From Nemertoderma westbladi (taxonomy: Eukaryota; Animalia; Xenacoelomorpha): a DNA stretch of 64,000 nucleotides. Both the position numbers and the translations under genes were made by a program. Under the pieces are notes generated by a model, which was not told where the DNA came from, searched no databases, and was given only the letters and a program-made list of their open reading frames with translations. Shown here piece by piece: positions 3,060 to 60,109 of this stretch. The stretch's first letter is position 1, and each line of letters opens with the position of its first letter. The stretch covers positions 1-64,000 of the forward strand of contig JAUCBJ010007107.1 of assembly GCA_032718475.1 (NCBI GenBank), in the 5' to 3' direction.

Positions 3060-3062
3060 GAC

Positions 3063-4706: not shown

Positions 4707-4749
4707 ACCACGCTGATGAGACCCAGTAAGGTCGAAACGCGTACGTGGT
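4707..4749 (+). ncRNA. Minimal type I hammerhead ribozyme, copy 5
   Basis: Identical to 3063-3105 (+1644). Confidence 0.9.
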
Positions 4750-21950: not shown

Positions 21951-24153
21951 TGTTACGGTATATGGCGCTGTATCCACAGTATTAGTCCATTATGCAGTAT
22001 GCAGTATTAGTCCATTATGCAGTATGCAGTATTAGTCCATTATGCAGTATGCAGTATTAGTCCGTTATACTGTACGTAATATTAGTCCGTTGTGCAGTAT
22101 AATTATTTAGATAAGGCGCAGTGTGGTGACATTTAGGTAAGGAAGTTAAAACGCCCATATATTTTGCATCCATTCATTTTGTATAGTATGTAGCCCTACC
22201 TACGTAATTTTGTATTAGGATATATGTAGATAGTTCCAGGGTAGCGAGTTTACTCGGACCCTGGATTTTGTGCTTGCTGATATTAGTTTGATAGGGCTAG
22301 CATATAGGGACGCTGTCCTGGCCATTCAGCAGCCAGAGACGTGATCCATTACCATATATGGTAATAATTTGAGGGCATAGGGCTACAATCCGGTCTCCTT
22401 ATTGGATTAACTGCTTCCAGGTTGGTTTAATGCTAGCATGGACTGGAGAGCCAATGGGAGAGCGATTGAGTCACCTTATTGCATCACCCCATCCGGATCA
22501 CCTATAAATTGGCGGTGTGCCGGTAGGGCCTTTTGTTGTTCATATGTTCATGCCTTATCACATGACACACCCCTGTTACAATTTACTTGCTGAGCTGTCT
22601 CTAATTTTGTATTAGGATATCGTATTTCTGCAATTTGCTAATTCTGATTAATTTCTTGGAATGATTTGCTATTACGATTACTTTGCTTGTGTTTCTCAAT
22701 AATTCCTTCGATTACTGCAAATTACAATCGAACTATGATTTCTACCTTTGATTGATGGTTCTATGTGATTCTTTTCTGCGCAATAATCCCAAGGGATTCC
22801 TGAGACTGTCAGACTTTGTGATTTGCATGCGCCGCTACGGTAGCTATTAGCATCATGGAGGGCTAAGGTGCCAGTGGGCGGTGGGCGCATCGGGGGGTTG
22901 AGCAACTAGGAGAGAGCGGAGGATTCAAGGCGGGCAACGCTGGCCAGGGTCACCGTTGCGGGCGGGTATCTTGCACTGCGGCACGCAGACCGATCGCCGG
23001 TACAGTATCTAGGGGGCTGATGATCCAGGTTTTGTCTCTATTTAGTATTAGGGGGGCAGGAATTGGGTTAGTTAGGAATCCTAGATGTACCCGGGAGAGG
23101 CCTGCGCGTATTATAACGTTGAGTGTGGAGTACGAGTAGTGAATTGCACAATTGTAAACTGTGATTTCTAACGCTGATTGGTGTGTTATTGAAGTGTGCC
23201 TAAGATTACGAATGCTTAGATAGGCGCTCTTTTCCTTTGATTGATTTCTATTTCTTAGTTACAATAATTAGTTATTGATTAGGTCAAAGTAATACGGCAA
23301 TTTAGGCTATTACTAGCGAAACCTGTTGCGTGATAAATTAGAATTACGTATTCTGGAACTCTTAGTAATTAGTACGCTGTTAAATATTTGTGACTGTAAT
23401 TAATTAGTAAAAAAATTAAGAATTAGTACGCAGCATAGCGGAGAGTAGCTAAGGTAATAATTAGTGTACTGTAAACTATTCACGCTGAGCGGTTATTTGC
23501 ATTAGCGGGCAATCAGCTAGAACGCACTATTCGGTACGCACGATACGCTAGTAATTTTGCTGGCCTAAAGCCAGTCGGGGGCAGTTTTAGACCCGGAGTG
23601 GTACTATCCACGTAGAAACAGATACTGTACCATTTTGATATTTTAAATATTCTCGCATTCACACATTACGTTAGGGAACCTCCAGTATTCGCGATTAGAA
23701 AGACGTAGGTAATAGCGTGCTTTAATAGTGATAGAATTAGGCGTAAGAATACTCTGAGTGCAAGGCCTCTCGCACTCGTCTTAAGTAAGCTTAGGGAGCC
23801 GACTCGGGTTTACTGTTTTGGTTATTCCTGCGTGGCTCATAGATTCGAACAGTTAGCTCTCTATCGAGCAATCGGTAGAGAAAGGAACAAGCGATTTTGC
23901 AGGAGTTGTGTAAATTTAGTAAAATATATTAGCGGACGGCAGATTAGCGCCATCTAACGGTAAGTAGCAGTTTGTATTTAGCAACCCTTACAATTTAGTA
24001 ATATCACGCTCCTGAGCCCCTTTACTTAACAGTAGAGCAGTCTTTGTGTCTTATTGGTTAGACGAGAACTTATTAGGTTGGCAGAAGGATATTAACGGGT
24101 ATTGGTCTGTTCAACAGTTCTGCTGTTAGTATAGAGGTCGCGGTTGTTTATCA
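21951..24153 (+). repeat. 5' LTR of element 1 (2203 bp), with 25-bp tandem repeats cagtattagtccattatgcagtatg near its start
   Basis: tgttacggta...tttatca; near-identical to 38834-41036 (4 substitutions seen by eye). Confidence 0.97.
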
Positions 24154-24197
24154 GTAATACGCGCTTTGTTTGCTGTAGGCTGTAGCGTACAGTAAAT

Positions 24198-25616: not shown

Positions 25617-28600
25617 ATGAGTGTCTCAGACAAAGAGGCACTAGAGGACAGCTATGAGACGGCGGCTGGACCGCCGACTGACGATAGCGTAAATATTACT
25701 GTTGATGACAATGCCGACTATGACGACGCAGCGAGCGACGCTGACGTAAGTGAACAGGAGGACGAGACAGTGACTAGTGAGGAAGAACAGCAGCCTCATG
25801 TAATAGTATTAGGATCCCCTACCGCTACTGTAAGGAAGGATTGTACAGCAACCCAACCAGAGGTGAGTGATAGGGAGGGTAGTGTAGCAGAAGCGAGAGC
25901 CCGGAGCCCGGTTTCCAGACCTGTGGGTATGGTAAGTGCCGTGGTCCCGACGGCTGTTAGGAGTACCCGTAGTTTCCGAAATAATCCTTCAAGTCCACCA
26001 AGTGTGAGTCAGGTAAGCGAGAGAGAACTTGATATCGCGATAAAGAAGAAACTTCGCGCGCATGCCGGACATATAACTCGGACGGCGGACAAGGTAAGGA
26101 AGATGTTAGCTGACCCAGCGAACATCGGGAGGGTAGAATTAGTAGAGATTAGAAGAGGATATAACTCAGCGTTATTCAAGCAGACGGAGGAGCTTGCAGT
26201 CCTAGCGAAGAAGGCAGTAGAGTCTCAGTCGAGCGACGTAGCAACGAGGATTTACGACAGGGTTTTAGCAGCCTTGTTAGAGCACCGCGAGTTATCGGAG
26301 CGATTCCGGCGAGTTAGGACGGAGAACTGGCTGCTATGGGCATCACAAACGCAGGCGACTCAGGTGAGTGACGCAGAGTTAAGAGACTTAGTGGAGCGGG
26401 AAGAGATCCAAGATAAGGAAGAGCGCCGTTATCAGAGGGAAGTTACTAGCTGGCTGATGCAGAATGGAGTGGTGGTACCAGGCCAGGTGCTACCGACGAC
26501 GGAGAACATTCAACAGAGGACGTTAACTCCACCCGACGATGCATCCAGAGACAGCGGCGATTCCCAGGTTAGTCACGCGCGAGGGAAAGTAATATGTGCT
26601 AGATCCCTTGTTTCTCACAACTCGGCGGAGGAGAGAAGACGCCGACTAGACGAACAGCAGGCGGAAGTTTTGCGTGCACAGGAAGCACGGAAGGAAGCCG
26701 AGCGGGAACGGGAGCGCACACGTAAGTTGGACGCAGAGTTACGAGAGTTGGAAGAGATAAGTAAGCGCGAGCGAGCGGAACGCGAGCAAAGGGAACGTGA
26801 ACTCCAAGCCGAGCGCGAGCGCGAGGAACTCGAATGCGAACAGAGAGAACGCGAACTCCAACTTGAATGCGAACGGGAAGCGAAGAAACGCGAACTCCAA
26901 CTCGAACGCGAACAGGAAGCGAAGAAACGCGAACTCCAAGCCGAACGCAAGCGCAAGAAACTCGATCGTGAACAGAAGGAGCGCGAGCTTCAACTCGAAT
27001 GCGGACGCAAGGAACGCGAACTCGAGATCGAGAAAAGAAGACGCGCATTGTATGAAGAAAAGGCGCGAGTGGAAGAAGAGAGCGCAGCGAGACGAGCGAG
27101 GGAAGAAGAAGAGCGTAAACTGGCGCAGTTGGAAAGTGCGAGATTAAGTTTAGAGAGCGAAGAACGGACTAGGAAGGCGAACGAAATCGCCGAGAAGGGG
27201 ATGCGAATGCTCGAAGAATGTGGGGCGAGTGTGGGGACAGAGTTGCGAGAACTGTTCGCACTGCAGAAGGCCGAACAGGAAGCGAGAACTCCGACTATAC
27301 GCGAGTCAACGACGACCAGAATTCCTATACCCGGTCCAGCTATTACGAGTACACGGATCGTTAAACCGTTCTCTACATATCGCACGCCAGTTGGTATTAG
27401 TGCTTCACCTATCGCCCAGGATCTACGTCATCGGAACGCCGCACCACTGTATACCGAACGTGACAACGGAGAATTTAGAGAAGAAACTCCAACGGGACGA
27501 GTATTTGGCGAACCGAACCCGCGGGTTTGGAATACGCGGACGGAGCGCCGACCCAGTTCGACGGAGAACTTCCGGGTTAAACCGGAAGAGGGATCATATG
27601 AGAGACAGCGGATTACTCAGATAGAGCCGACTATACAACAGAACCCTAGCCAGGAATTTATTACGAGGGATGAGTTAAGTGCTAGTTTAGCGCAAGCTAT
27701 ATCGCCGCACATCCAACCTATAACGGACATGCTTAGCAACCTACGGTTAAAGGAAGCAGCCCAGGTAAGAAGTAATTCTAATCCTAGCAGGCCTGAGTTA
27801 GATAAAGTCCAGCCTAGTCAACGAGTACGCATATCGGAGGAGACTATACCACATAGACCTCAGGTAAGGACGCCTGTCCCGAATATCCATAATCCCAATT
27901 TCGAAAATTCGGCAGAAAGATTTATTGAGGAAGCTTGGGTCAGGGCCTCGGCGCGCAAACCATCGCGAGTGCTAAGGACTGACACCGAGTCAAGCGATGA
28001 AGAGGAAGACATGAGACGTCAGAAGTCCCGAAACTATAAGGAAAGAAGGACGGACGCGGAGCAGGTAAGTTGGAACCACCGGGAAAGGACCAGACTTAAC
28101 AACCCTGCGGAACTAAACCATTTGTTAACCCGGAACGACGCAACCCTTAGGGACATAGGTAAGTTTGCTGCTAGGCAAGGACTGCCGACGCAGCAACCCC
28201 AGAAGTTTATGGGTAACCATAAACATTGGAGGACCTTCAAAACCTATGTCGACGAGCAGCTAACCAACAGCACCTTTACTCCCAACGAAAAGTTCAACTA
28301 TTTGCTTCAGATGCTCCATCGAGAACCTAGAGCCATTGCTGATAACTTCGTCGGCAATGAACGGGCATTCGAATTAGCGATGAAGACGCTTAGCGACATC
28401 TACGGGAATAAAACGAAGATGGCGCAGTCGATAGTAGAAGACTTGGGTAAGGGCGGAAGGATTACAACTCCGTTAGAGCTGTTGAACTTAGCGAACGCTA
28501 TTTCGAACGCATTGGACATCTTGAGGACGGTGAATCTACCTCATCATGGTGATCACGCCGAAGTTTTGAAAAGCGTAATAAGACGTTTAAACATGCGTTA

Positions 28601-31600
28601 CAGACAGAAATGGCGCAAATTAGAGAATAAGTTGGAGGGCCAAGGTAAGGTGTTGACACTTCAGCATATTCATGACATGATAGCCACAGACGCAGTAGCA
28701 GAGATGAAATCAAACTTCTCAGAGGAGAATATGAGGGAGTCTAAACCTGTTACCGGTAAGTCTATGGTAAGTTTTGACGATGACAGGACCACTGTGACAT
28801 TTAACTCAGTAGACAGATATAATTCGAATACCCCAGCCTTTAGATCAGACTCGCGAGTATGGTCAGGTGAGCGGTTAGATAGACCTAGGTTAAAGCAACA
28901 GGAGTTGCCGGATGGATTTGTAGGTTGCCAATACTGTTTACTAAAGGAGGTAAGATCTGACGACCATAAGTTAGATAGTTGCAGACGGTTCAAAGAATTA
29001 AATTCGGAACAGAGAAGAGTTCAAGTGCGGACGTTGGACACCTGTTGGGCTTGTCTTGCGCCAGGTCATGTACGGCGGCAGTGCCCGAACAGCAAGGACG
29101 GATGCATGGAATGCGGCAGACTACATCACAAGTTGCTACATGCGGATTTCCACACCCCAACGGACCGTTACTTACAGCGAAATCCTCAAAGGAAGGGGAG
29201 CAAAGAACCCGTATCGATAAGGAGGAATACGTACACTGGCATCCAGGACGATGGTTACCAACCAGGTTCGTCGGACGAGGATGGCGAGTCGAGCGCGAGA
29301 GAAGTGACCTGCCAAGGTTTCACTGCGGATAGTTCATCGACCAGCGCGCGGACGTATTTATCATCGGCAACGTCGGAAATATTTAGCGTGATTCCGGTGA
29401 AACTCACTGGCGATAAGGGATCGAAGCGAATATATGTGATGTTGGACACTGCGTCCACATTATCTTATATCGACGAGGAAGTGGCGAGAGCCGTTTCTAG
29501 CTTCCAGGACGCCGAGGAGATCCAAATAGAGTTGAAGTCTATGCATGGAGTAGGAGACCTCAAGGGACACAGAATTTCGGTAGAACTTGATTCCCTACTT
29601 CCGAGAGACCAGCATACTCGACAAGAACGGAAAGCTTTGCCATTGGACGGATTTAAGTGTCTAGCTATGAAGGGATTCGGCAGGCAGTTAGGTAAGGTGC
29701 CGCCGATGAGTCCCATAGCACAGGAGTATTTTGACAAGCTCAGGATACCCAGACATCAGGTAGGTTATAGGAATGTTTCTATGTTGATTGGTGCAGAACA
29801 GCTGATCGCACACCAGATATGGGAAACGAGACCAGCTGAGCCGCATGTCAATGGACCACATGCCCATAGGACCATACTAGGTTGGTATACACGAGTACCC
29901 ATGTCTTATGAGTTTACAGGTGGCGACAAGCCAATGGACAGATACGATGAATTACAGCCTATAACTCAACCACCGTTAGTAGAACCACCAGACATAGACG
30001 AGTTTAGGAGAACCTGTATTGACCACTATAGTGACTTTAGCGAGTCGGACGAGGAGTTGATTCCCGATAACGTTAGGTTGTCGGAACCACTTCATAATGA
30101 CCGGACAGATAGTGAACCCGAGGACTACTGTTATCAGACCCGTGGGTCTGGTTCAGCGGCCCACGCTACCTATTTGACTAACGTTTTGACTTATACCGAC
30201 ATAGTGGAGGGTCAAGTGGCTAAATATCGAGACCTAGACATTTTCCAATACAGTGAGGAGGAATTACAGAAGGAATTGATACGCCAGGACCTCGAAACAG
30301 GAGCTAGAACCGTCGAATGGCTGGATAGGGACGCAATGGAACCCGGTGGGTATGATCTAGCCATGTCTACTGATGAGAAACGGTCGCTGGAGATGATGGA
30401 AGATACCATACGTCTACTACCGACTGGACATTTTGAAGTTGGAATGTTGTGGCGTCGACAACCACCTAAGTTGGAGAACAACTACAGCTTAGCCTTGAAA
30501 AGATTGAACGGAGTAAGGGCTCGGTTGTTGAAGAATCCGGACATTAGGGAGAAGTATTGCGCCCAGATCAACAACTATTTCGCCAAGGGATTTGCTGGGA
30601 AGGTAGAGGACCCTGACTTAGTGACAGACCAGACTTATTACCTTCCACACCACTATGTGACTCACCCTGACAAGCCAGACAAAGTCCGAGTAGACAACGA
30701 CTGCGCAGCAGTCTATAGAGGTATGTCCCTAAATTCAGAGTTGATGGATGGTCCCAACCTGAATAACTATTTGATTGGAATACTGTTGCGTTTTAGACAG
30801 CGGCGATTCGCATTTACTTGTGACATCGAGGCGATGTTCCACCAGGTAAGAGCCTGTAAGGCAGACCAGGATAGCCTTCGATTTCTCTGGTTTGAGAATG
30901 AAGACTTATCCGGCCCAGTGGTTACATACCAGATGTACGTAAGGATATTTGGCGCCCGCGATAGTCCAAACGGCACGCTGTTTGTGCTAAAGAAAACGGC
31001 AACAGCCCAGATTGGTAAGTACCCAGTAGAAGTAATCGAGTCCATCTTGAGAAACTTCTATATGGACGACGGATTGGTGTCCAAGGACACAGCGGAACAA
31101 GCCATAGAAGTGGCTCATGGCCTGCAAGAGTGCTTGGCTACAGGGGGATTTCCTCTGACCAAGTTCACTACTAATTCGGAGGCCCTATTAGAATCGTTCC
31201 CGGTAAAAGATCGCGGGAGCGGAGACATAGAATTGGGGGTAGAACCAATCCCCATGGCGCGAGTACTGGGACTCGCTTGGAACCCGAACTCGGATAAGTT
31301 CCAGGTAAGAGTTAGATTTGAGCCCAGTAGCCCAGACAAAGTTTTGACAAAGAGAATTTGCTTATCGACATTAAGTAGACTATTTGACCCGATGAACTTT
31401 ATCAGTCCGGTTATATTACAGGCACGAGCGTGCATGAGGAAAATTTGGTTGTCCGACTTAGAGTGGGACGAACCAATATCTCCTATACATGCAAAGCAGT
31501 GGAGGGAGTGGGAAGCCGAGTTGCATCTATTGAAAAATATAGATGTACCCCGTTCCTACTTTCCGAATCAGCTGGTATTTCCAGCTGATTTAGAACTGCA

Positions 31601-34055
31601 TTTATTCAGTGACGCAAGTGATACCGGCTTTGGTATGGTAGCCTACCTTCGCCGAGAGGTAAGTCAGGACAAATTTGAGACGGCCTTTGTGACTTCTAGA
31701 TCAAAGACAATGCCGGTCAAATATATGACTGTCCCTCGTGCAGAGTTACAGGCGGCTGTAGTTTCGGTCGAGGTAAGTAAGCAAATAACTGAGGAGTTAG
31801 ACACGACATTGACCTTATTCTATTGGACGGACGCATCCTTGGTGTTAGTATACATTGCGGCCGACAATATTGCACTAAAGACATTTGTTGCCAACAGACG
31901 CGCTCAGATCGTTGATTTTTCGACGAAGGAACAATGGAGACATTGTCCGGGAGTGTTGAACCCGGCCGACATAACTTCGAGAGGTGCAATGCCGGCGGAA
32001 TTCTGTCAGGAAGAGTCGCAGGAGTTTTGGTTGCATGGACCTGAATTTCTAACGAGGACACAGGAACATTGGCCAGAGCGACTAAAGATAGTGACCAATC
32101 CGATGCCTGAAGATGCAGAAGTCAAAGTGGAGAAAGTCTCTAAGTCGAAGTCTAAAGCCAAACTTAAGTCATTGGAGCGGCCTGAAGAGTCATTGGAGCG
32201 GCCTGAAGAGTCATTGGAGCGGCCTGAAGAGTCATTGGAGCGGCCCGGAGACCTGTCAGACCAACAGACTTACGTGACTACTAGGTCCGGAAGGGTAAGT
32301 TATGACATCAAACCACCCTTACAGACTAAACCGCAGTCACAGTTGGTAAGTGACGGACAGAAAATGACCGACACAATGGAGCCTTTGGTTTCCAAACCTG
32401 CGGGTTTGGATTCGAAACTTCCATTAGTTAGCGGACAACCGTCGCTGGCATTAGAGTCATGCAGTGTTTATGACAAATTACTAAATTCGTCTGCCTCTTG
32501 GCTGACAATTTGTAAAAGAACTGCGTGGTTAAGCCGATACGTTTCGTACCTTTGTTTAAAACATTCGAAACATTTGAGAGAACCATTGAGCACCAATAGT
32601 GAGCGAATTCGGAAATTGAAACAACCTCTGACAGAGGATGAGATTGATCAAGCGGAATTAAAGCATTTGAAACATTATCAAATGTGTGCCTTCCCCAAAG
32701 AATTCCATCTATTATCGGCTCAACGACCAGTTCTCTATAAACCCCTTAGAAAATGGAGTCCATTAATCCATAAGGGTTTAATTTGTCATAGATCGAGAAT
32801 CCAGACTGTCGACATAAACTCACAGTTTCGGTTCCCAGTGATAATCCCTAGTCACCCAATAGAATTGCAAAGAGCGATTCTATGGGATATACACAAGAGG
32901 TTGCATCACGCGGGAAAGTTACACTGTTTGTCGGCAGCGAGACAGCGATTCATTCTATTGCAGCCAAGCAGGGCAGTCGGCACTATGTATGACGCCTGTC
33001 TGGTTTGCAAAAGGGTGAACGCCAGAGTATTGGAACAGGAGATGGCTGAACTCCCGGAAGCGAGAGTGCAGGCATATGACCCACCCTTTACGAATACAGG
33101 GGTGGACTGTTTTGGTCCGATTGAGGCAAAGAGTGGACGGCTGACCCACAAGCGATGGGGTCTGCTACTGACATGTATGGCTAGTAGAGCCATACACATC
33201 GAACGTGTGGCAGACATGTCGACTAAATCTCTGCTCCTGGCCTTAAAGAGATTTATGGCCAGGAGAGGACTAGTAAAGGCGTTCTACTCTGATAAGGGTA
33301 CAAACTTTGTCGGAGGGAATAGCGAGTTGAACGCGGCTCATAAAGCAGCACAGAATAAGGAAATTTCTGCAGCACTTTTGCCGCAACGAGTAGAGTGGAG
33401 ATTCAATACTCCAGAAAGTCCTTGGAGAGGAGGAAGTTGGGAGCGTTTGGTTCGCTCTGTGAAGCAGGCCATTGCCAAAACATTGCCTGTGAACAAACAA
33501 CTTACCGACGACGAACTGGTCACAGCCTTTATTGAAATCGAGCATACCCTAAACTCGAGGCTGATAGCTATGTTGCCAGACGGTGTTGCATTAACGCCGA
33601 ATCATTTGCTAATGCAGAGTCCAGCATTTCTTGTGCCGGCATCAGAACCCATTAGTGCCGACCTATATAGTCGTAAAAGCTGGAAGGTGACACAATTAGT
33701 GGCGTACACATTCTGGGAATATTGGCGGGAATACTATCTTCCCACCATATCCACCAGAACAAAGTGGTACAAAACGGTTCGGAGTCTCCAAAGGGGAGAT
33801 TACGTGTTGATAACCGAACCCATTGTCAAGAGAAAGTATTGGGAGACAGGAGTGATCTTGCACACACACCCAGACGTGCAAAACATAGTGCGCACAGTCA
33901 CTGTGAAAATTAGGTGCAAGTGTCCGCACCCAAAAAAGTGTAAAACTAATGGTTTACACACCTTGGACCGACCGGTCCAAGATATTGTGTTATTAGAGGA
34001 GACACGCATCGAGACGGGAGATTATAGTTTGTCTCCTGCCTCAAAACAGAGTTAG
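25617..34055 (+). CDS. BEL/Pao Gag-Pol polyprotein (2812 aa)
   Basis: Coiled-coil E/R repeats; Pao gag (FMGNHKHWRTF...EKFNYL); knuckles CWACLAPGHVRRQC and CMECGRLHHKLLH; protease LDTAS; RT DIEAMFHQ...FYMDD; RNase H FSDAS, PRAELQAA, WTDAS, NPADITSRG; integrase HHAG..CLVC, GVDCFGP, SDKGTNF, WERLV; order PR-RT-RH-IN. Confidence 0.97.
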   Translation: MSVSDKEALEDSYETAAGPPTDDSVNITVDDNADYDDAASDADVSEQEDETVTSEEEQQPHVIVLGSPTATVRKDCTATQPEVSDREGSVAEARARSPVSRPVGMVSAVVPTAVRSTRSFRNNPSSPPSVSQVSERELDIAIKKKLRAHAGHITRTADKVRKMLADPANIGRVELVEIRRGYNSALFKQTEELAVLAKKAVESQSSDVATRIYDRVLAALLEHRELSERFRRVRTENWLLWASQTQATQVSDAELRDLVEREEIQDKEERRYQREVTSWLMQNGVVVPGQVLPTTENIQQRTLTPPDDASRDSGDSQVSHARGKVICARSLVSHNSAEERRRRLDEQQAEVLRAQEARKEAERERERTRKLDAELRELEEISKRERAEREQRERELQAEREREELECEQRERELQLECEREAKKRELQLEREQEAKKRELQAERKRKKLDREQKERELQLECGRKERELEIEKRRRALYEEKARVEEESAARRAREEEERKLAQLESARLSLESEERTRKANEIAEKGMRMLEECGASVGTELRELFALQKAEQEARTPTIRESTTTRIPIPGPAITSTRIVKPFSTYRTPVGISASPIAQDLRHRNAAPLYTERDNGEFREETPTGRVFGEPNPRVWNTRTERRPSSTENFRVKPEEGSYERQRITQIEPTIQQNPSQEFITRDELSASLAQAISPHIQPITDMLSNLRLKEAAQVRSNSNPSRPELDKVQPSQRVRISEETIPHRPQVRTPVPNIHNPNFENSAERFIEEAWVRASARKPSRVLRTDTESSDEEEDMRRQKSRNYKERRTDAEQVSWNHRERTRLNNPAELNHLLTRNDATLRDIGKFAARQGLPTQQPQKFMGNHKHWRTFKTYVDEQLTNSTFTPNEKFNYLLQMLHREPRAIADNFVGNERAFELAMKTLSDIYGNKTKMAQSIVEDLGKGGRITTPLELLNLANAISNALDILRTVNLPHHGDHAEVLKSVIRRLNMRYRQKWRKLENKLEGQGKVLTLQHIHDMIATDAVAEMKSNFSEENMRESKPVTGKSMVSFDDDRTTVTFNSVDRYNSNTPAFRSDSRVWSGERLDRPRLKQQELPDGFVGCQYCLLKEVRSDDHKLDSCRRFKELNSEQRRVQVRTLDTCWACLAPGHVRRQCPNSKDGCMECGRLHHKLLHADFHTPTDRYLQRNPQRKGSKEPVSIRRNTYTGIQDDGYQPGSSDEDGESSAREVTCQGFTADSSSTSARTYLSSATSEIFSVIPVKLTGDKGSKRIYVMLDTASTLSYIDEEVARAVSSFQDAEEIQIELKSMHGVGDLKGHRISVELDSLLPRDQHTRQERKALPLDGFKCLAMKGFGRQLGKVPPMSPIAQEYFDKLRIPRHQVGYRNVSMLIGAEQLIAHQIWETRPAEPHVNGPHAHRTILGWYTRVPMSYEFTGGDKPMDRYDELQPITQPPLVEPPDIDEFRRTCIDHYSDFSESDEELIPDNVRLSEPLHNDRTDSEPEDYCYQTRGSGSAAHATYLTNVLTYTDIVEGQVAKYRDLDIFQYSEEELQKELIRQDLETGARTVEWLDRDAMEPGGYDLAMSTDEKRSLEMMEDTIRLLPTGHFEVGMLWRRQPPKLENNYSLALKRLNGVRARLLKNPDIREKYCAQINNYFAKGFAGKVEDPDLVTDQTYYLPHHYVTHPDKPDKVRVDNDCAAVYRGMSLNSELMDGPNLNNYLIGILLRFRQRRFAFTCDIEAMFHQVRACKADQDSLRFLWFENEDLSGPVVTYQMYVRIFGARDSPNGTLFVLKKTATAQIGKYPVEVIESILRNFYMDDGLVSKDTAEQAIEVAHGLQECLATGGFPLTKFTTNSEALLESFPVKDRGSGDIELGVEPIPMARVLGLAWNPNSDKFQVRVRFEPSSPDKVLTKRICLSTLSRLFDPMNFISPVILQARACMRKIWLSDLEWDEPISPIHAKQWREWEAELHLLKNIDVPRSYFPNQLVFPADLELHLFSDASDTGFGMVAYLRREVSQDKFETAFVTSRSKTMPVKYMTVPRAELQAAVVSVEVSKQITEELDTTLTLFYWTDASLVLVYIAADNIALKTFVANRRAQIVDFSTKEQWRHCPGVLNPADITSRGAMPAEFCQEESQEFWLHGPEFLTRTQEHWPERLKIVTNPMPEDAEVKVEKVSKSKSKAKLKSLERPEESLERPEESLERPEESLERPGDLSDQQTYVTTRSGRVSYDIKPPLQTKPQSQLVSDGQKMTDTMEPLVSKPAGLDSKLPLVSGQPSLALESCSVYDKLLNSSASWLTICKRTAWLSRYVSYLCLKHSKHLREPLSTNSERIRKLKQPLTEDEIDQAELKHLKHYQMCAFPKEFHLLSAQRPVLYKPLRKWSPLIHKGLICHRSRIQTVDINSQFRFPVIIPSHPIELQRAILWDIHKRLHHAGKLHCLSAARQRFILLQPSRAVGTMYDACLVCKRVNARVLEQEMAELPEARVQAYDPPFTNTGVDCFGPIEAKSGRLTHKRWGLLLTCMASRAIHIERVADMSTKSLLLALKRFMARRGLVKAFYSDKGTNFVGGNSELNAAHKAAQNKEISAALLPQRVEWRFNTPESPWRGGSWERLVRSVKQAIAKTLPVNKQLTDDELVTAFIEIEHTLNSRLIAMLPDGVALTPNHLLMQSPAFLVPASEPISADLYSRKSWKVTQLVAYTFWEYWREYYLPTISTRTKWYKTVRSLQRGDYVLITEPIVKRKYWETGVILHTHPDVQNIVRTVTVKIRCKCPHPKKCKTNGLHTLDRPVQDIVLLEETRIETGDYSLSPASKQS
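32167..32245 (+). repeat. In-frame 21-bp tandem repeat (SLERPEE x about 4) in the RNase H-integrase linker
   Basis: agtcattggagcggcctgaag at 32167, 32188, 32209, 32230. Confidence 0.9.
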
Positions 34056-34819
34056 TGTTGGACGCAACTCACTTCGTATGCATTCCTCGTATGCAAATAC
34101 AAGGAAATGCATAGGAGCGGGGTTGTGGTGATTTGCGTTGAGTTTTGTCTGGTGGGTATCAAAACAAAATTTTATTTTCAAAAATTTTGGAAAATTTAAA
34201 ATTTTTAAAAAATTAGAAGTGAACCCAAGACAATTCCAGACGCTGTGTATAGACGCGTTTTAGAATTCGTCTATAGATAAACAGTAATTTGAAAAGTCGT
34301 GAAGCCTGGAAAATAGCATTTAGAAACCATGGTGACGGCTATATTACGTAGGAGTGTAAATTGAGTTTAGCAACTTCCACAGATTGGTGCCAACAGTGCA
34401 ACTAAGGTGCTAAAGGTTAGTAGCACCAGAGGGGTGCACGGACCCCACTCAGTAGTTTGCAGGATGTGTGATGTTCGATTATCAAACCTGTGGGTTTGGT
34501 ATAGTCGAGTATTGTGGCTATAGTCCTTTCTAACTACTGTAGTTTAGTACGAGTAATGGGAGTAGTTTGGGCATCAAAAAGTGAGTTGGTCACGGCCAGT
34601 TTATCTCCAAAGTTTTTGCGCTATGCATGGGAATAGGTTAGAGGATAGTTAGTTAGGAAGAGACGGGATCTAGAGAGTCGAACCTGAACTGCTGGAAGGC
34701 GGGGGGGGGGGGGGTTCGGGAGGTCTGTCCTTCGGCGACATCTAACTGATTTACCCACAGTGTAGTTGGTTACGTAACGGCACTTATTGGGATATATATA
34801 TGTATATACGCGTAACATA

Positions 34820-37800
34820 ATGGAGAGGGATATTAGAGCGCAACCGCGCAGAGGATTTACTGCCAGAGAGGAGGCGGAGCTACCATTCGCGCGACCAGGA
34901 TGTAAAGACTCTAACGTTTACTACCATGGGCGGTCCGTGATGGAGCTGAACGGGAAGTATAAACCAAGTTATGATAAAGAATTACGGAGAGAAAGAATGA
35001 GAGCGTTGGGGGACCGGATGGAAGTCTTGCGGAGAGAGTATCGCACGCGGTATCCCTACGACTTTGCTTTGGACGTGTGCGACATTAGCGCAGATCCGGA
35101 CGAGGAAATCGCACGACTATACCATATGAATATGTATTTACGACACGAGGAGCCTCTACCTGCAGTCCGAGACCAGTTCGACGGAATGCACCTGTATCGG
35201 AAGACTCGAGGCGAGGATCAGGAGACGCCGAAAGTCTTCAGCGTATACAAGCTCTTCTACAAGTGTGGTGAATGCATGAATAAACAGGACGTGGCGATTC
35301 CCGACCGATTAGACGAGCAACATCCGGAACCGATATTAACGCGATGTCCAGCTCACCAATTCCTTAGATACAACGAGGGAGGTTACCCGATGAGCAACCC
35401 GATGATCAGTATCGACTTCAGCGGAAAGCGACCTCCGAGACCCATTACGCCGACCGTTACGACATTAGATCCGTATACGGAGATTAAACCCTGTTCGACA
35501 CCCAGTTTGATAGAGACGGCAGCAGCCATTTCGCTGTACCGAGCCTACAAGGATCTAGAGGCGCGGCGCGAAGCGGCGCGGGACTCGGGTACCAAACCCG
35601 TGGGTTTGGAGCTCTCGAGTCCCTGGACTGCGTTTACTTCACCTCACCGAGTGAGAAGCCTCACACCTGAGCATCAGGACGACATAGACGCGTTGCGGCA
35701 GGAGGAGCGAGCGGCGAAGGCGAAAGAGTTATTTGAGAACAGGATAGCGGAGTATAATAAGACCGCGGATAGACATCAAGAGGAGACGAGGAGAGTGACC
35801 GGATTTGTTCCACAGGTCGTATCTCAACCCGGACCGGTGTGTTATTCCGACGGCACCGAACCTGCGATATTAGTAGATCATCCGGAGTCGCGAGAAGCGA
35901 TACGATTCTTGCCGATGGTAAGAATGGCGGACCATTGGAATGTTGACTGTCTACGGGAAGTTTTATGCGCGAAGTTCTTGCGTGATGTCCCAATGCAGAT
36001 CACAGATTACGACACTTTGTACAAGATTGGAGCTCCGGGGAAGGAGAGTAAGTTATTCGGATGGTTGGATAAGTACATCAAGGTATGGGTCGCGGTGGCT
36101 ACATTCCCAGATGACGAGGAGGTAGACCAGACGTGGCTGAGGAGGAAGGGTTCTTATACCCGATATGATGACCACAAGGCTATTGAGCGCATGTGGACCC
36201 CATCAGATGAGATTCAGCGTCAGTGGAGGAAAACGGAGGAATCACTGCAGGATTGGAGAGTGATGTTCTACGACAATGAAGGAGGGTCCCATCAGGAATG
36301 CTTGACTAGCAAGTGTATTCAAATTCGTGCGGCCGATGGTGTGACTCATGTGTTTATGCGTGTGAGGGCGGATCGAGAGAGACCGGAGCCCATCATAACG
36401 ACACAATATCGGAAGGGGAAGGATCCTAGGGAACAGATTTTGGAGGTATGCAGGCGAGGAGGTATGCACGGAGCGGAGCGTATCGACGCCAGGATGTTAC
36501 CCAAGAAAGCTAGAGAGGCTATTCTCAACCAAGATTACGTCAAGGTGGGATCGGGAGTCCAGAGCGATTTGGAGAGCGACTTCAACGCCATGACTGATCT
36601 GGAAGATAGATTGCCGAGACCGTTTGTCGACACCAAGCTATTGTTGCTATGGGCACAGGATATTGGAATTTATAGGGAGTATCCCAACTCTGCCAAGACT
36701 GGTATGGGCTTTATAGCACACTTGTTGTATAATTGGGACTTTAAGTTAAAGACGCAGAAGAAGTACGAGGAGGCGTATGGTGAATACAACACGCCACCGG
36801 GAGCGGAGTTCAAATCCCACTTCAAGCGGCAAGCGTTAGTGTATTGGAACATTTGCGCGCCACCCCGTGCGTCGCTACAATATTATTTGGTGCTTGAGTC
36901 GAACACGGTGACTTGTTTATTAGCGGATATCGTTGCGCGAGTTTTGAAGCGTCATCCATTGGTATTCGGAGGAGATCAATACGTTCGCTCGAAAGGGGGA
37001 ATCCAATCCGACGTGATGAAGCGTTTCTTAACCCCGTTCTTCAACCAATCGTTAGAGAATACGTCGATGGTAAGGAGAGGATTAGCGATATTCGAAGGAG
37101 TATATCGACAGAACATCGGAGATTTGGGAGACCGACCGTCGATGGAATATCCGACGCCAGAAGCTTTGGAGAAGTGGTTCAGGAATCAAACCCGCGGGTT
37201 TGGTACTCCCTTCCACTCGGAGGCTGATAGACCTGTTAAGGAGGGCTGGCCGGAAACGTTAGTAGAGGTGTTCGGAGTAGATCTTCCGGTGGAGAAGACA
37301 TATCCGAAACGAACGCGGGAGGAAATATTGGAGATAGAGGACAAGGGCGAGGATGTTTACTTTGTTCCGGATCGACAACCGTTGACCGGAGAGGACGACA
37401 TCGTATTAGACATTGGGAAGGAAGGAAGTGCGAAACCGATTGGAGACCTCATATACGAGAGGGCCTGGTTTCCACAAGCGCGTAGGTGCAAATTGTGCGG
37501 CAGCACAAGGCACAATCTAAAGTCGTGCGACGCGGTAGTAGAGGCGGCGCATAAGGTCTGTCGTTGGTGTAATGAGACCGACCATTCGTTTCACACGTGC
37601 ACCGTCTTCATTTCTCAATGTGGATATTGTGGAGTAAAGGGACATCGTAGCGCGAGATGTCAGCTGCGAGATGATTCCTTTCAAAACCATAGCGCTAACC
37701 TACTTCGGGAGATGTTAGATAAGTGGGAGAGTGTGGCGGATTACCATATTCAAGCGCAGATGCGTTGGTTACCATTTAAAGCGGGATATGGGTTTTGGGC

Positions 37801-38527
37801 GGTAGACCCATCGCATGTTGCGTACGAGCCATATCTACAATCGCTACCACAATATCAGGAGCTCATCCTAACTGCTCAAGACCTTCCACAGAACACTGGA
37901 GTTATCGTAGTCCGAGAATACTTCAGACAATTGAACATGGACAATAAGTACACATGGAACTTCGTTGCTATTTGCGATCGCATCACGAAGGGTGTATTTA
38001 CGGAGACTAGAAAAGTGGTACGCGCGCGAGGTGATTGGAGGATGGCGGCTATACAATACCGCAACGAATTCTTGTTGACTCATGTGCCAGTGGGTTCATT
38101 GACCGCCGAGAGGATACAGGAACAAAGGATCGCAGCGACCACAGCGACGACCGCTGGAGCTCAAGGCTCGCGGAAAGAACGAGGAGGAGGGGTCCAAGAC
38201 AAGCGTCAAGTCAAGGACGACCACTACCACTCCATTATAGAAGCTCAACGGTTGCAGCGCAAGGCGCAGGGGGCGTCTGAGAAAGCGCGTGTGCAACTGC
38301 AGAAGGAAGAGTTGGCGGAAGCGACCACGGGAGCGCGACAATTGGGACGAGGCCGAGGGAGAAGTTCAAGCCGAGAATCTGTCGGGGCTCAGGGAACGTC
38401 GTCGCCGGTTCCGGGGAGTGACGCCTCACGGACGCCGTCAACGGAGTCGACTAGAGGTAGATTAGTGTATCTGGGAAGGGGACGAAAGAGAGGAGCGAGC
38501 CCAAAGAACCCAGGAGCGGGTCGATAA
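34820..38527 (+). CDS. Accessory ORF2 of element 1 (1235 aa from first ATG); three CCHC zinc knuckles, basic RG-rich tail; function unknown
   Basis: Uninterrupted 3.7-kb ORF between pol and the 3' LTR; CKLCGSTRHNLKSC, CRWCNETDHSFHTC, CGYCGVKGHRSARC; no signal peptide or TM segment evident. Confidence 0.88.
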   Translation: MERDIRAQPRRGFTAREEAELPFARPGCKDSNVYYHGRSVMELNGKYKPSYDKELRRERMRALGDRMEVLRREYRTRYPYDFALDVCDISADPDEEIARLYHMNMYLRHEEPLPAVRDQFDGMHLYRKTRGEDQETPKVFSVYKLFYKCGECMNKQDVAIPDRLDEQHPEPILTRCPAHQFLRYNEGGYPMSNPMISIDFSGKRPPRPITPTVTTLDPYTEIKPCSTPSLIETAAAISLYRAYKDLEARREAARDSGTKPVGLELSSPWTAFTSPHRVRSLTPEHQDDIDALRQEERAAKAKELFENRIAEYNKTADRHQEETRRVTGFVPQVVSQPGPVCYSDGTEPAILVDHPESREAIRFLPMVRMADHWNVDCLREVLCAKFLRDVPMQITDYDTLYKIGAPGKESKLFGWLDKYIKVWVAVATFPDDEEVDQTWLRRKGSYTRYDDHKAIERMWTPSDEIQRQWRKTEESLQDWRVMFYDNEGGSHQECLTSKCIQIRAADGVTHVFMRVRADRERPEPIITTQYRKGKDPREQILEVCRRGGMHGAERIDARMLPKKAREAILNQDYVKVGSGVQSDLESDFNAMTDLEDRLPRPFVDTKLLLLWAQDIGIYREYPNSAKTGMGFIAHLLYNWDFKLKTQKKYEEAYGEYNTPPGAEFKSHFKRQALVYWNICAPPRASLQYYLVLESNTVTCLLADIVARVLKRHPLVFGGDQYVRSKGGIQSDVMKRFLTPFFNQSLENTSMVRRGLAIFEGVYRQNIGDLGDRPSMEYPTPEALEKWFRNQTRGFGTPFHSEADRPVKEGWPETLVEVFGVDLPVEKTYPKRTREEILEIEDKGEDVYFVPDRQPLTGEDDIVLDIGKEGSAKPIGDLIYERAWFPQARRCKLCGSTRHNLKSCDAVVEAAHKVCRWCNETDHSFHTCTVFISQCGYCGVKGHRSARCQLRDDSFQNHSANLLREMLDKWESVADYHIQAQMRWLPFKAGYGFWAVDPSHVAYEPYLQSLPQYQELILTAQDLPQNTGVIVVREYFRQLNMDNKYTWNFVAICDRITKGVFTETRKVVRARGDWRMAAIQYRNEFLLTHVPVGSLTAERIQEQRIAATTATTAGAQGSRKERGGGVQDKRQVKDDHYHSIIEAQRLQRKAQGASEKARVQLQKEELAEATTGARQLGRGRGRSSSRESVGAQGTSSPVPGSDASRTPSTESTRGRLVYLGRGRKRGASPKNPGAGR

Positions 38528-38833: not shown

Positions 38834-41036
38834 TGTTACGGTATATGGCGCTGTATCCACAGTATTAGTCCATTATGCAGTATGCAGTATTAGTCCATTA
38901 TGCAGTATGCAGTATTAGTCCATTATGCAGTATGCAGTATTAGTCCGTTATACTGTACGTAATATTAGTCCGTTGTGCAGTATAATTATTTAGATAAGGC
39001 GCAGTGTGGTGACATTTAGGTAAGGAAGTTAAAACGCCCATATATTTTGCATCCATTCATTTTGTATAGTATGTAGCCCTACCTACGTAATTTTGTATTA
39101 GGATATATGTAGATAGTTCCAGGGTAGCGAGTTTACTCGGACCCTGGATTTTGTGCTTGCTGATATTAGTTTGATAGGGCTAGCATATAGGGACGCTGTC
39201 CTGGCAATTCAGCAGCCAGAGACGTGATCCATTACCATATATGGTAATAATTTGAGGGCATAGGGCTACAATCCGGTCTCCTTATTGGATTAACTGCTTC
39301 CAGGTTGGTTTAATGCTAGCATGGACTGGAGAGCCAATGGGAGAGCGATTGAGTCACCTTATTGCATCACCCCATCCGGATCACCTATAAATTGGCGGTG
39401 TGCCGGTAGGGCCTTTTGTTGTTCATATGTTCATGCCTTATCACATGACACACCCCTGTTACAATTTACTTGCTGAGCTGTCTCTAATTTTGTATTAGGA
39501 TATCGTATTTCTGCAATTTGCTAATTTTGATTAATTTCTTGGAATGATTTGCTATTACGATTACTTTGCTTGTGTTTCTCAATAATTCCTTCGATTACTG
39601 CAAATTACAATCGAACTATGATTTCTACCTTTGATTGATGGTTCTATGTGATTCTTTTCTGCGCAATAATCCCAAGGGATTCCTGAGACTGTCAGACTTT
39701 GTGATTTGCATGCGCCGCTACGGTAGCTATTAGCATCATGGAGGGCTAAGGTGCCAGTGGGCGGTGGGCGCATCGGGGGGTTGAGCGACTAGGAGAGAGC
39801 GGAGGATTCAAGGCGGGCAACGCTGGCCAGGGTCACCGTTGCGGGCGGGTATCTTGCACTGCGGCACGCAGACCGATCGCCGGTACAGTATCTAGGGGGC
39901 TGATGATCCAGGTTTTGTCTCTATTTAGTATTAGGGGGGCAGGAATTGGGTTAGTTAGGAATCCTAGATGTACCCGGGAGAGGCCTGCGCGTATTATAAC
40001 GTTGAGTGTGGAGTACGAGTAGTGAATTGCACAATTGTAAACTGTGATTTCTAACGCTGATTGGTGTGTTATTGAAGTGTGCCTAAGATTACGAATGCTT
40101 AGATAGGCGCTCTTTTCCTTTGATTGATTTCTATTTCTTAGTTACAATAATTAGTTATTGATTAGGTCAAAGTAATACGGCAATTTAGGCTATTACTAGC
40201 GAAACCTGTTGCGTGATAAATTAGAATTACGTATTCTGGAACTCTTAGTAATTAGTACGCTGTTAAATATTTGTGACTGTAATTAATTAGTAAAAAAATT
40301 AAGAATTAGTACGCAGCATAGCGGAGAGTAGCTAAGGTAATAATTAGTGTACTGTAAACTATTCACGCTGAGCGGTTATTTGCATTAGCGGGCAATCAGC
40401 TAGAACGCACTATTCGGTACGCACGATACGCTAGTAATTTTGCTGGCCTAAAGCCAGTCGCGGGCAGTTTTAGACCCGGAGTGGTACTATCCACGTAGAA
40501 ACAGATACTGTACCATTTTGATATTTTAAATATTCTCGCATTCACACATTACGTTAGGGAACCTCCAGTATTCGCGATTAGAAAGACGTAGGTAATAGCG
40601 TGCTTTAATAGTGATAGAATTAGGCGTAAGAATACTCTGAGTGCAAGGCCTCTCGCACTCGTCTTAAGTAAGCTTAGGGAGCCGACTCGGGTTTACTGTT
40701 TTGGTTATTCCTGCGTGGCTCATAGATTCGAACAGTTAGCTCTCTATCGAGCAATCGGTAGAGAAAGGAACAAGCGATTTTGCAGGAGTTGTGTAAATTT
40801 AGTAAAATATATTAGCGGACGGCAGATTAGCGCCATCTAACGGTAAGTAGCAGTTTGTATTTAGCAACCCTTACAATTTAGTAATATCACGCTCCTGAGC
40901 CCCTTTACTTAACAGTAGAGCAGTCTTTGTGTCTTATTGGTTAGACGAGAACTTATTAGGTTGGCAGAAGGATATTAACGGGTATTGGTCTGTTCAACAG
41001 TTCTGCTGTTAGTATAGAGGTCGCGGTTGTTTATCA
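38834..41036 (+). repeat. 3' LTR of element 1
   Basis: Matches 21951-24153; preceded by ttggagcgg, followed by TSD ggtgg. Confidence 0.97.
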
Positions 41037-46789: not shown

Positions 46790-47919
46790 TGTAAAAGCTT
46801 TTGCGGGATATAACTGGCCCTTTTGCTTCGCAATCCAGTTTCCCTTAATGCGCTCAAATACTCTAAAGAAAAACTCCCTAACTCAAAGGATGAAAGCTAC
46901 CGGCTGATTGGCTGATTTGCCTAGCGACGGCCTCTTTGTTGGGTTCGATCAACCAACCAGAGCAAGGTCAACCAAGCAGAGCGATTCAGCCTTATGTTGG
47001 CTAAATCAATGTAATTGGCTGCAAAGGCTAGGGTGGTTTGGCATTTTAGACGATTTGGAACCTGTGGAATATGGAACTCTGCCAATGAGAGCTTTTCCTT
47101 TCTGTGTTGAAATCTACCTGCAGCAGCTCACAGGGTTCAGTGTGTTGGTTTTCCTGATGCCATGCACATCGGCCATGGAATTATTCTGAATTATTCCAAC
47201 ATTAGAACGTCTTTAATTATAAGATCACATAACTGTTACCGGTACTACGGTACATGACCAGCACTGGACAGCGTGAGGACCGGTACGGTACCTGCTGCTG
47301 TATTGCACATTATTTACTGCTATTTGCTGTTTGTTATTAAATGTATAATTCGTTTGCATATTGTTATTTGGAGAATAACTATAAACGATCAGAAACCCCG
47401 ATCTTCTTGATACACTAAGGTTAGAGAGACCGGCTACATATAGCAATTGCGGCTTATATTATCGTGGTTTGTAGTGTGTAGTGAATTGAATGCTATTTTA
47501 TAGGCCCTACAAATGCCGGTTGCTATTCTCTTTATATATGATTAAAATCAGTGACTATCGGCAATTCAGTGTGCAGCGGTGTGCAATAGTCTGTATGTGC
47601 TTGTCCGCGTAACAAAGCATCTCCTAAAGAATGCGTCTTATGTGTAACTTATAATCCATTCGTTGTGTTTAGTGTAAGCCATAGCTCTGTTTATATAGAT
47701 AGAGCGCCACGTCCTAAAGGAACTGCTAATATTTCCCGAAAGTGAATAATATTTGTCAGAGATTATATATTAACGATCAATCGAATAGTACGGTAGGCCT
47801 GCACCGCAATCAAATTAAAGCATCCGAATCCAGTCTCTCGGGTATATCCAGCGGGTGAATGGTCGCGCATAGACTGGCTTCGGCTAATGTTGGATTTATT
47901 TGTGTCAAATACTTGTCAT
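46790..47919 (+). repeat. First (3'-truncated) LTR of element 2
   Basis: Matches 49552 onward until acttgtcat, then jumps via tcat microhomology to the sequence equivalent to 58474. Confidence 0.92.
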
Positions 47920-47925
47920 TATAAT

Positions 47926-49473
47926 ATGGATAAACTTATATAGCAGATATGATTGAGTTGATAGAAGATGAGCTTGGTATCAGGGAGCGATATACTCTAC
48001 CTTTACAAGCGTTTGTTGATAGCTTGATACGCGGCGACGCTGGTCCAACTACTACGGAGGACGATGGTCGTTATATCTAACCGCCAATCTCCCGGGAGCA
48101 ACTTGCGCGTGGGTTGGACTGTAGAAAATTTACCGCTCGCTATACGCATCGTAATGGTATGTATATGGACTTCTTAACTACTGGTCATCCTATCGACCTA
48201 CACGATACGAACGATATAGACACCAAAAGGGAAATGGTTTTATTTAAATATCATACCCAGCGGAAGCGGAACGATAAAATGAGACTCGAACACGAAAATT
48301 CTATTCGAAACCGACTTGAAAGGAAGATGTTGAAGAGCCGGATAAACGCAGCGACTTCACCAAAATATCTGGAATTCTTGAGAGAAGCCTATCTTGATAT
48401 TACCAGTCAACAGAACCTAGAGACTCGATATCCTCAAGGTATACATCATGACCGCATGGTAGAACTCAAACAGCTCTATTCCACTATGATGTATCTTACC
48501 GTCGATCGACCGCTACCTGTTGTACCGGATAGCTTCGAACGGATGGAGGAATATTGTAAGCTGGAGAAAGATCACTCGCGTTTCCCCTATAAGACGTGCG
48601 TCTTTGGTATTATTGAGATGAATGCCCTAGACCCAACCAACAAACGGAAAGATATAAACATCCGCGGAGACGTTGCGCTAAACACGGTTTTACTCGCTAT
48701 ACTTACGGGAGTTTCGAGCGAAACTTGTTCGATGTATCACCTACGCTCGCTCGGCTCAAACGATCCTTAAATAAACCTATGATCAGAGTTCCGGAATACT
48801 CGATCAGACCTCCTCATTCCCTAGTGAGACCTCAAGCTCTTGATCTTAATAGTATGACGGATCCTCCTGAACTGTATTCATTGTTTAAAGATCTAGTGTT
48901 ACCCGAGCAATTAGTCGGTGGCACTCCGGTTGTGGGCTCCCTAAATATCCGCCCATCTTACCTGGCCGGATTGGGGCACGGACACCTGATATCGCCATTC
49001 AACCGTATAATCGTAATCGTCCCCGTTTAACACGATACAACCGTCATCAAGGTGGAGGAGAGCGTTGTATGAAACGAGTTAAACGCTATTCTACAAAGAT
49101 CAGAAAAGAAACCTACGTTTGTTCAGATAAACTTAAATTATAACGGCAAGTCCAAGCGGTAAACGGATTGGCTTTATCCCAGTTCGATTGGGAAATCCCG
49201 AATCTCTAAGACGATATTGAGCTTGGATGACCCTATTCTCGGCGAGAGTTTGGACGAACGTATCCAACGATGAGCGGAGGAAAATCAGCTCGAGGAGAAG
49301 CATATCGAAACGGCGGATACCCCGACCATAATCCTACACCTTATGATGCAATCACATTGCACCCTTCACCCAGGAGTTATGGCCCTCCTAGTAAAGTGGC
49401 TCCCCCCAAAGAGAAAAGGACTCTTGCTAGCTTTAAAAAACTGCGTAAACGCCGTCCACGCAAGACAGACTAA
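47926..49473 (+). pseudogene. Fragmented accessory 3' ORF of element 2, duplicate copy
   Basis: Identical ORF pieces (218, 101 and 67 aa) to 58484-60031, offset 10558. Confidence 0.6.
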
Positions 49474-49551
49474 CTGTTTAGAGTATTTTTATATTTTAGA
49501 AACTGTGATTTTTTATATTTTATAGAATTAAATCCCATTTTCTGGGAGCGG

Positions 49552-50759: not shown

Positions 50760-51039
50760 GTAACAGTTATAGCTTCTTGATTGCGGCGTAAGCAATCAAG
50801 TTGATAGTACCGGTCGACCGGTAACCAGTAGGCCTGACTGCCTGATCATCCGGACCGGTACTTACTTACAGTACAGGTACAGCAGTATTATTTCGAGTGT
50901 GATATATTGTATATTGTAGGCTGTTAGGGGATTAGGGATTGATCACCCCTTATTCCTTTGCATGGTTTACTTATTTCTGTCAGTTTTATTTACTAGTAGG
51001 CTAATATTGAGCAAAAGACGTGTAAACCTGCTCAGATTG

Positions 51040-60031: not shown

Positions 60032-60109
60032 CTGTTTAGAGTATTTTTATATTTTAGAAACTGTGATTTTTTATATTTTATAGAATTAAATCCCATTTTC
60101 TGGGAGCGG

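Follow-up and report, generated by a model that had tools for sequence, protein, structure and literature searches.

A 64,000-nucleotide stretch of the Nemertoderma westbladi genome (contig JAUCBJ010007107.1 of assembly GCA_032718475.1, positions 1 to 64,000), referred to here as the window, contains an intact BEL/Pao retrotransposon of 19.1 kb. An accessory open reading frame (ORF), ORF2, is located between pol and the 3' long terminal repeat (LTR) of this element (Table 1). The LTRs of 2203 bp each have TG...CA ends and show 4 differences between them, and the element is flanked on both sides by the 5-bp target site duplication (TSD) GGTGG. Judged from these two features, the element is intact and young. 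Gag-pol was typed by Pfam with Peptidase_A17 (E 7e-39), DUF5641 (E 4e-16) and DUF1759 (E 4e-9), and its motifs followed the order protease, reverse transcriptase (RT), RNase H and integrase. ORF2 was open from ATG to TAA. A stop codon in the ORF2 frame ends at 34777, 43 bases 5' of the ORF2 start, and ORF2 is therefore not read through from pol. The spacer comprised a run of 14 G (34701-34714), a (TA)4 motif (34793-34800) and a candidate acceptor-like stretch ending at 34760. A preliminary description of the locus had reported a spacer of about 760 bp with a G run and a TATA-like run. The spacer and both runs were recovered, while the role as a TATA box was rejected. A TATA box usually lies about 30 bases from the transcription start. 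As the TA run ends just 19 bases before the ATG, transcription would start at or after the ATG. Separate expression of ORF2 is plausible and fits the gene layout. A six-codon upstream ORF was present at 34800-34822, the stop codon of which overlaps the ORF2 start (TAATG).

Table 1. Coordinates of the BEL/Pao element with ORF2 and of related features in the window (aa, amino acids).
Feature	Position	Strand	Remarks
5' LTR, 2203 bp, TG...CA	21951..24153	+	TSD GGTGG at 21946-21950 precedes
Candidate self-primer, 11-nt LTR segment	23104..23114	+	second copy in 3' LTR at 39987
Primer-binding position, no TGG, hence no standard tRNA 3'-end site	24154..24164	+	pairs with 23104-23114
gag-pol, one ORF of 2812 aa, BEL/Pao type	25617..34055	+	with gag knuckles of its own, aa ~1104-1174
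Spacer between pol and ORF2, 764 bp	34056..34819	+	
Accessory ORF (ORF2), 1235 aa	34820..38527	+	
N-terminal module, aa 71-262 (C-x2-C...C-x2-H)	35030..35605	+	without family or structure match
Predicted DEDDy 3'-5' exonuclease domain, aa ~462-711	36203..36952	+	likely D485/E487, D583, Y689, E693
Zinc knuckles (CX2CX4HX4C), three in tandem, aa 890-947	37487..37660	+	
Conserved post-knuckle domain, about aa 948-1020, F/W-x3-A...G-F-F/W pattern	37661..37879	+	family-wide
Low-complexity basic RG-rich tail	38120..38524	+	locus L003 ends in a similar tail
3' LTR	38834..41036	+	short purine tract GGAGCGG before, TSD GGTGG at 41037-41041 after
Broken N-terminal-module homologue, second BEL/Pao element	47919..49551	+	identical copy at about 58477-60109

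ORF2 encodes several modules. The knuckles are positioned at aa 890, 914 and 934, the N-terminal module carries the pairs C149-x2-C152 and C176-x2-H179, and the tail (aa 1101-1235) holds six RG and seven GR dipeptides. Neither a transmembrane (TM) helix nor a signal peptide was detected by the Kyte-Doolittle measure, with a highest 19-residue mean of 1.34 and a charged N-terminus. These properties agree with the preliminary description, which had reported an intact ORF of 1235 aa in the env position of a BEL/Pao element, with the same cysteine motifs, knuckles and RG-rich tail and with no env-like signal peptide or TM helix. Its suggestion of an RNA-binding protein is likely in view of the three CCHC knuckles. 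About 850 aa had been called unrecognised, and it is within this part that the exonuclease domain was located by profile and fold matches. The idea of an RNA chaperone is accordingly better replaced by that of a nuclease with an RNA-binding module. No significant match was obtained for the N-terminal 450 aa in the PDB (best E 1.3), and the post-knuckle domain had no known match. A predicted model of aa 441-1060 gave non-significant rows in Foldseek, and VIA gave a best Z of 4.1.

Pfam assigned no family to the whole ORF2 or to the exonuclease region. Word-based homology searches returned no relative with ORF2, only the relative P0002 with alignment A2 and none among longer proteins with alignment A6; these are weak negatives. 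The ESM Atlas, used as a lead only, placed the protein with DNA_pol_A_exo1 and zf-CCHC clusters (0.84 for the whole protein, 0.90-0.91 for aa 450-730). A phmmer search over 1.84 billion representatives detected seven proteins at E<=0.001. Five of these matched most strongly at the knuckles and two at aa 558-722. All seven shared the order of exonuclease-like motifs, knuckles and conserved domain, and 11 knuckle positions were invariant in the eight aligned sequences. An independent test profile was built from the exonuclease-like part of just four relatives that had been found via the knuckles. It scored 34.2 bits on ORF2 aa 553-652, compared to at most 3.9 bits in 500 shuffles, of which 176 gave any score. 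The gag-pol protein and the reversed ORF2 gave no score with this profile. Profile A6, built on nine rows with ORF2 among them, matched seven PDB sequences, all of them DEDDy domains: EXD2 (E 2.6e-7) and two sequences each of Egalitarian, WRN and trypanosome RNase D.

The structure predicted from A6 reached a predicted local distance difference test (pLDDT) score of 68.6 and a predicted template modelling score of 0.68. Foldseek matched it to EXD2 at E 2.7e-4. In a wide structural search, the 50 listed matches were all DnaQ-like exonuclease domains or enzymes that contain such a domain. Nibbler was the top match (Z 12.7, root-mean-square deviation 3.4, 185 aligned residues), and further matches included WRN (Z 11.9), EXD1 (Z 11.4), Egalitarian (Z 10.7) and trypanosome RNase D (Z 10.2, with 12% identity in the structural alignment). 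A library of viral structures gave nothing at E<=0.001, and its best rows were exonucleases at 10%-17% identity. A match of the exonuclease region to rotavirus VP4 (E 0.008) conflicted with all profile and fold results and was attributed to chance. The DnaQ/RNase H-like fold of DEDD exonucleases was thus found in the predicted model, together with the profile match. Altogether, it is very probable that aa ~462-711 of ORF2 constitute a DEDDy 3'-5' exonuclease domain homologous to DEDDy enzymes.

The catalytic motifs were located by alignment. D583 of Exo II and Y689 and E693 of Exo III aligned firmly. The Exo I pair of Asp and Glu was kept in all eight rows that cover it. The Exo II Asp was present in eight of nine rows and invariant in another alignment, and Exo III was acidic in all nine rows, with seven Asp and two Glu (ORF2 and P0002). 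ORF2 therefore has Glu at position 693 where seven of eight relatives have Asp, while Y689 of the Y-x3-D motif is present. A literature search on the effect of an Asp-to-Glu exchange at Exo III on catalysis found nothing. E-INS-i and trimmed alignments placed D485-N-E487 at Exo I, with an insertion of ~30 residues after the third strand; P0007 also has an insertion at this place. Ungapped block scoring over aa 440-575 selected 478-488 as the best Exo I block and 498-515 as the best hairpin block, with normal spacing. Within the whole protein, these blocks ranked 9th of 1224 and 5th of 1217, respectively. In the acidic register the model formed the three expected strands with pLDDT 71-80. Alignments and model together suggest that ORF2 is likely an active exonuclease, and two-metal catalysis by D485, E487, D583 and E693 appears rather probable.

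Relatives with genomic context were obtained from a metagenome scan, for which the query was a four-protein alignment without the window sequence. Three loci, L001, L002 and L003, were recovered from 270 pattern matches. L003 carries an open BEL/Pao gag-pol of at least 2033 aa with Peptidase_A17 (E 1e-39), RT, integrase and DUF5641, and its pol is ~30% identical to that of the ORF2 element. Exonuclease, knuckles, conserved domain and RG tail follow downstream in two frames. L002 comprises a gag-like ORF, a pol end with DUF5641, an ORF2-type gene with one stop, a purine tract and LTR-like repeats. L001 encodes P0006 and, with a length of 2.5 kb, is too short to show context. Identity of ORF2 to the closest relatives with known context was 12%-23%. 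Scans of viral contigs and an earlier metagenome scan with P0004 gave no ORF2 relative. Judged from these sequences, the ORF2-type gene is an accessory gene linked to other BEL/Pao elements, and the family of exonuclease, three knuckles and following domain is missed by Pfam and travels with BEL/Pao elements. Homologues in other BEL/Pao elements, for which the preliminary description had proposed to look, are represented by L002 and L003, which carry the gene behind a BEL/Pao pol. The preliminary description had also considered a captured host gene; that such a capture took place recently is not supported, since the relatives with context sit in BEL/Pao elements at such low identity. At L003, a short AT-rich stretch between the exonuclease and knuckle frames (~7400-7550) is maybe an intron. 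In the relative P0001, the block of knuckles and following domain occurs in two copies, and the Exo I motif is degenerate.

The N-terminal module showed a different distribution. The distant relatives have a length of 514-727 aa and miss the N-terminal 450 aa including the module. The window's second BEL/Pao element carries a broken homologue, based on two stretches that were each reached in none of 500 shuffles; three further stretches were not significant. The ORF2-like region of the second element had no exonuclease or knuckle match.

Conservation among copies was evaluated from 1769 and 759 contigs of related copies from two runs, aligned on 36200-37750. At a share of >=10%, 47 sites were variant, of which 40 were listed. 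Synonymous changes accounted for 34 of the 40 listed sites, 33 of them at third positions, whereas the expected synonymous share was 21%-34% depending on the transition weight (p<1e-10). The rough omega was 0.05-0.09, or 0.10-0.20 if all seven unlisted sites were non-synonymous. None of the 40 listed sites fell in the five catalytic codons and no indel was listed in 36200-37750. For comparison, 21 of 33 listed variant sites in gag-pol were synonymous. ORF2 is under strong purifying selection among copies in this region, in line with the conservation that had been anticipated. Contigs from runs that are likely DNA skip 34703-36692, 34965-35295 and 37208-38033, which points to internal deletions in some copies. 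Contigs of a further run, guessed to be RNA, gave no listed joint, a result that carries no weight with regard to splicing.

Exonuclease genes in retroelements have been described in bdelloid rotifers, where a DEDDy ORF3 occurs in Juno and Vesta and also in Athena/Terminon elements (Rodriguez, Kenefick and Arkhipova 2017, PMC5408684), and these third genes have been reviewed (PMC6431247, PMC6338049). As described there, the Juno/Vesta ORF3 resembles ORF2 in being a separate ORF after pol, in env position, with an RNase D-like DEDDy domain, retained acidic residues and no TM or coiled-coil env features. This likeness was drawn from the published description. The Juno/Vesta motif is DEED (PMC5408684), compared to D-E-D-E in ORF2 and D-E-D-D in most relatives. 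ORF2 differs in its BEL/Pao host, in the three CCHC knuckles with the following domain and in its length of 1235 aa with an N-terminal module. Furthermore, ORF2 is under strong purifying selection, whereas for the rotifer third genes no sign of selection is in print as far as the literature search reaches. BEL/Pao is not discussed in the main text of PMC5408684. Some Dada DNA transposases likewise contain a DEDDy domain (PMC3706591).

Among cellular proteins, Trypanosoma brucei RNase D (TbRND; PDB 7c42/7c45) has the same arrangement, with CCHC fingers in tandem behind a DEDD exonuclease. Unlike ORF2, TbRND has four fingers and is a cellular enzyme of the mitochondrion, where it trims the U-tails of guide RNAs (PMC7797062). 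The two probably share architecture rather than orthology. TbRND without its CCHC domain was weakened in RNA binding and cleavage (PMC7797062). EXD2, WRN, Nibbler (mut-7), EXD1 and Egalitarian showed 8%-16% identity to ORF2 and none has the triple knuckle with the following domain; no donor can be named. Other BEL/Pao elements with an extra ORF after pol and ahead of the 3' LTR are roo (F-type), mosquito chuvirus-like gB-type elements (PMC13524379) and hookworm Atlas. Unlike these env genes, ORF2 lacks a signal peptide and a TM helix and shows a predicted nuclease fold. The word 'exonuclease' was absent from a survey of env-carrying elements (PMC13524379) and from an annelid LTR survey (PMC8220671). 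No report of an exonuclease gene in BEL/Pao was found in a literature search that covered titles and abstract openings, with most subscription papers and Repbase reports outside its scope. As far as this literature goes, the DEDDy accessory gene in BEL/Pao would be new, and exonuclease third genes as such are known only from the rotifer elements.

The element also carries a candidate signature of self-priming. In both BEL/Pao elements of the window, an LTR segment can form a duplex of exactly 11 bp with the 11 nt that directly follow the 5' LTR. In the first element, the duplex has a calculated energy of -15.2 kcal/mol; in the second, 49991-50001 pairs with 50760-50770. Out of 300 dinucleotide shuffles per element, two reached 11 pairs for the first element and one did so for the second. 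The two pairs consist of different letters, each has a terminal G-U pair, and both sites begin with GTAA. TGG is missing after the 5' LTR in either element, which was the sole basis for judging the tRNA site, and no tRNA gene was found in the 64-kb window. The single TATAAA in the LTR of the first element is located 600 bases upstream of the 23104 segment. The LTR ends of L002 are degenerate and the 5' end of L003 is missing, which confines the observation to the window elements. In Tf1-type self-priming, an LTR segment is complementary to the primer-binding position and a tRNA site is absent (PMC4600332, PMC6317226). The 11-bp complement is thus a candidate Tf1/Tj1-type signature in both elements, and it agrees with the unusual priming that the preliminary description had noted. 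The Tf1/Tj1/sushi group consists of Ty3/gypsy chromoviruses or copia TAR elements, unlike the BEL/Pao elements here, and no accessory exonuclease is described for it in the accessible text of these sources (PMC4600332, PMC6317226). Within 134-bp repeats, the leader shows the LTR end together with the primer-binding word at three positions (24150, 24240 and 24374).

Based on these findings, ORF2 is tentatively proposed to be a conserved BEL/Pao accessory exoribonuclease that grips RNA and acts against host small silencing RNAs, a reading that is possible without being probable as a whole. ORF2 would be expressed from a separate and probably spliced mRNA, as described for the rotifer ORF3s (PMC5408684). 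The knuckles would grip RNA, the DEDDy domain would digest it in 3'-5' direction, and the element would be protected because its product shortens or degrades the small silencing RNAs of the host. By analogy to trypanosome RNase D, RNA held by the knuckles is a quite probable substrate. Host small RNAs as target form the weakest step and may be suggested with reservation. A silencing suppressor had been among the preliminary suggestions, next to a processing factor for the priming. Host small RNAs were favoured because unrelated retroelements acquired such nucleases (PMC5408684), suggesting that these are of general use, for example in counter-silencing. In addition, the product of a free-standing ORF needs no entry into the particle. 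The presence of Nibbler, EXD1 and Egalitarian among the near structural matches was also counted for this target. A number of observations weigh against the proposal. The substrate might be DNA, as the Z scores of Nibbler, polymerase proofreading domains, WRN and RNase D to the model were tied within ~1. Rodriguez et al. saw no clear copy-number benefit of the DEDDy ORF3 and raised processing of the element's own RNA first (PMC5408684). Informative context was available for just two of nine relatives (L002 and L003), both from one assembly. With regard to activity, two default alignments put a non-acidic strand at Exo I, which would mean a pseudo-nuclease, and the confident profile alignment covers only aa 550-700, with Exo I outside. 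The alignment behind the better model had been trimmed to the acidic register, and the pLDDT of 68.6 and that of 41.7 for the model of aa 441-1060, which was in the other register, come from models differing in length and depth, which makes their comparison uncontrolled. Finally, the Glu for Asp at Exo III and the residues flanking D485 are atypical. The ambiguous Exo I register and this Glu would suit a weak or dead RNA adaptor similar to EXD1 or Egalitarian, which might shield element RNA or move it, for instance by carrying it to the germ line as a substitute for env. The ~30-residue insertion, the 450-aa N-terminal extension absent from relatives, the structural matches to EXD1 (Z 11.4) and Egalitarian (Z 10.7) and the RG tail are also consistent with an adaptor. 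However, D485-N-E487 and hairpin 498-515 were picked by block scoring as the best collinear blocks with normal spacing, the three strands formed with pLDDT 71-80 in the acidic register, and the acidic residues are kept in relatives at 12%-23% identity, with P0002 also having Glu at Exo III. An adaptor function is thus unlikely.

An exonuclease might instead act on the element's own nucleic acid, by cutting the unpaired 3' overhang of a self-derived primer down to the 11-bp duplex with the primer-binding site or by processing RNA or cDNA ends; possible proofreading of RT products and a chaperone role of the knuckles, like that of nucleocapsid, belong to the same explanation. The missing TGG and the 11-bp LTR complement in both window elements and the large size of the element (19.1 kb) fit this explanation, and RNase D-type enzymes are described to trim 3' ends of structured RNA (PMC5408684). 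On the other side, self-priming of the Tf1 type is described for elements that lack a gene of this kind (PMC4600332, PMC6317226). How the product of a separate ORF would enter the particle is not evident, and the ordinary gag-pol length of L003 (at least 2033 aa) weakens the idea of proofreading for size. The cut in Tf1-type self-priming is made by RNase H. Action on the element's own nucleic acid was considered somewhat unlikely. A more specific form, in which a tRNA-independent BEL/Pao lineage has its own primer-maturation enzyme whose knuckles would anneal the 11-nt RNA and whose exonuclease would trim the overhang flush, is improbable. The env position of ORF2 and the tandem knuckles of gag proteins would speak for an env gene, for the gag of an element nested at this site or for neutral cargo of recent host origin, a reading that is highly implausible. 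ORF2 has no hydrophobic helix, no gag Pfam family, no similarity to the gag-pol of its element and no second LTR pair around it, which also agrees with the preliminary distinction from env, for which a match to an env or to a nested gag would have been the refutation. The knuckle region scored 36.7 bits on the protein of L001 and at most 4.8 bits on three gag-pol proteins; as single-sequence scores, those on L002 and L003 were also low (3.4 and -2.8), compared to 75 and 64 bits with the family profile. The strong purifying selection and the presence of an ORF2-type gene behind a pol of just 30% identity argue against neutral cargo.

The assignment turns an unannotated ORF of 1235 aa into a testable predicted enzyme and defines a protein family. 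If host small RNA were the target, ORF2 would represent a transposon-encoded counter-defence nuclease, which has long been sought in the conflict between transposons and PIWI-interacting RNAs. If the element's own primer were the target, a new step in LTR reverse transcription would be indicated, and with primer maturation by ORF2, the replication cycle of LTR elements would comprise a fifth enzyme. The young intact copy makes tests with purified protein practical.

The second BEL/Pao element (46790-61317) is defective and flanked by the TSD ACTTT. It has a gag with DUF1759 and most of pol is missing. Of its three LTR copies, the first is shortened and is separated by the broken ORF2-like region from the second, which is full with 1208 bp. 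Gag and the ORF2-like region again follow, and then the last LTR. A block of 2844 bp is repeated within it with 0 differences. Other features of the window were a 145-bp inverted repeat (21505-21805) with 96% complementarity, which resembles a miniature inverted-repeat transposable element and is located ~145 bp left of the ORF2 element, and a 411-bp tandem repeat (2796-5150) with five identical copies and a partial sixth. An uninterrupted frame of 1022 codons at 6285-9353 encodes a WAPL domain (E 8e-29); its second half is G+C-rich and it is possibly an intronless gene or a retrocopy.

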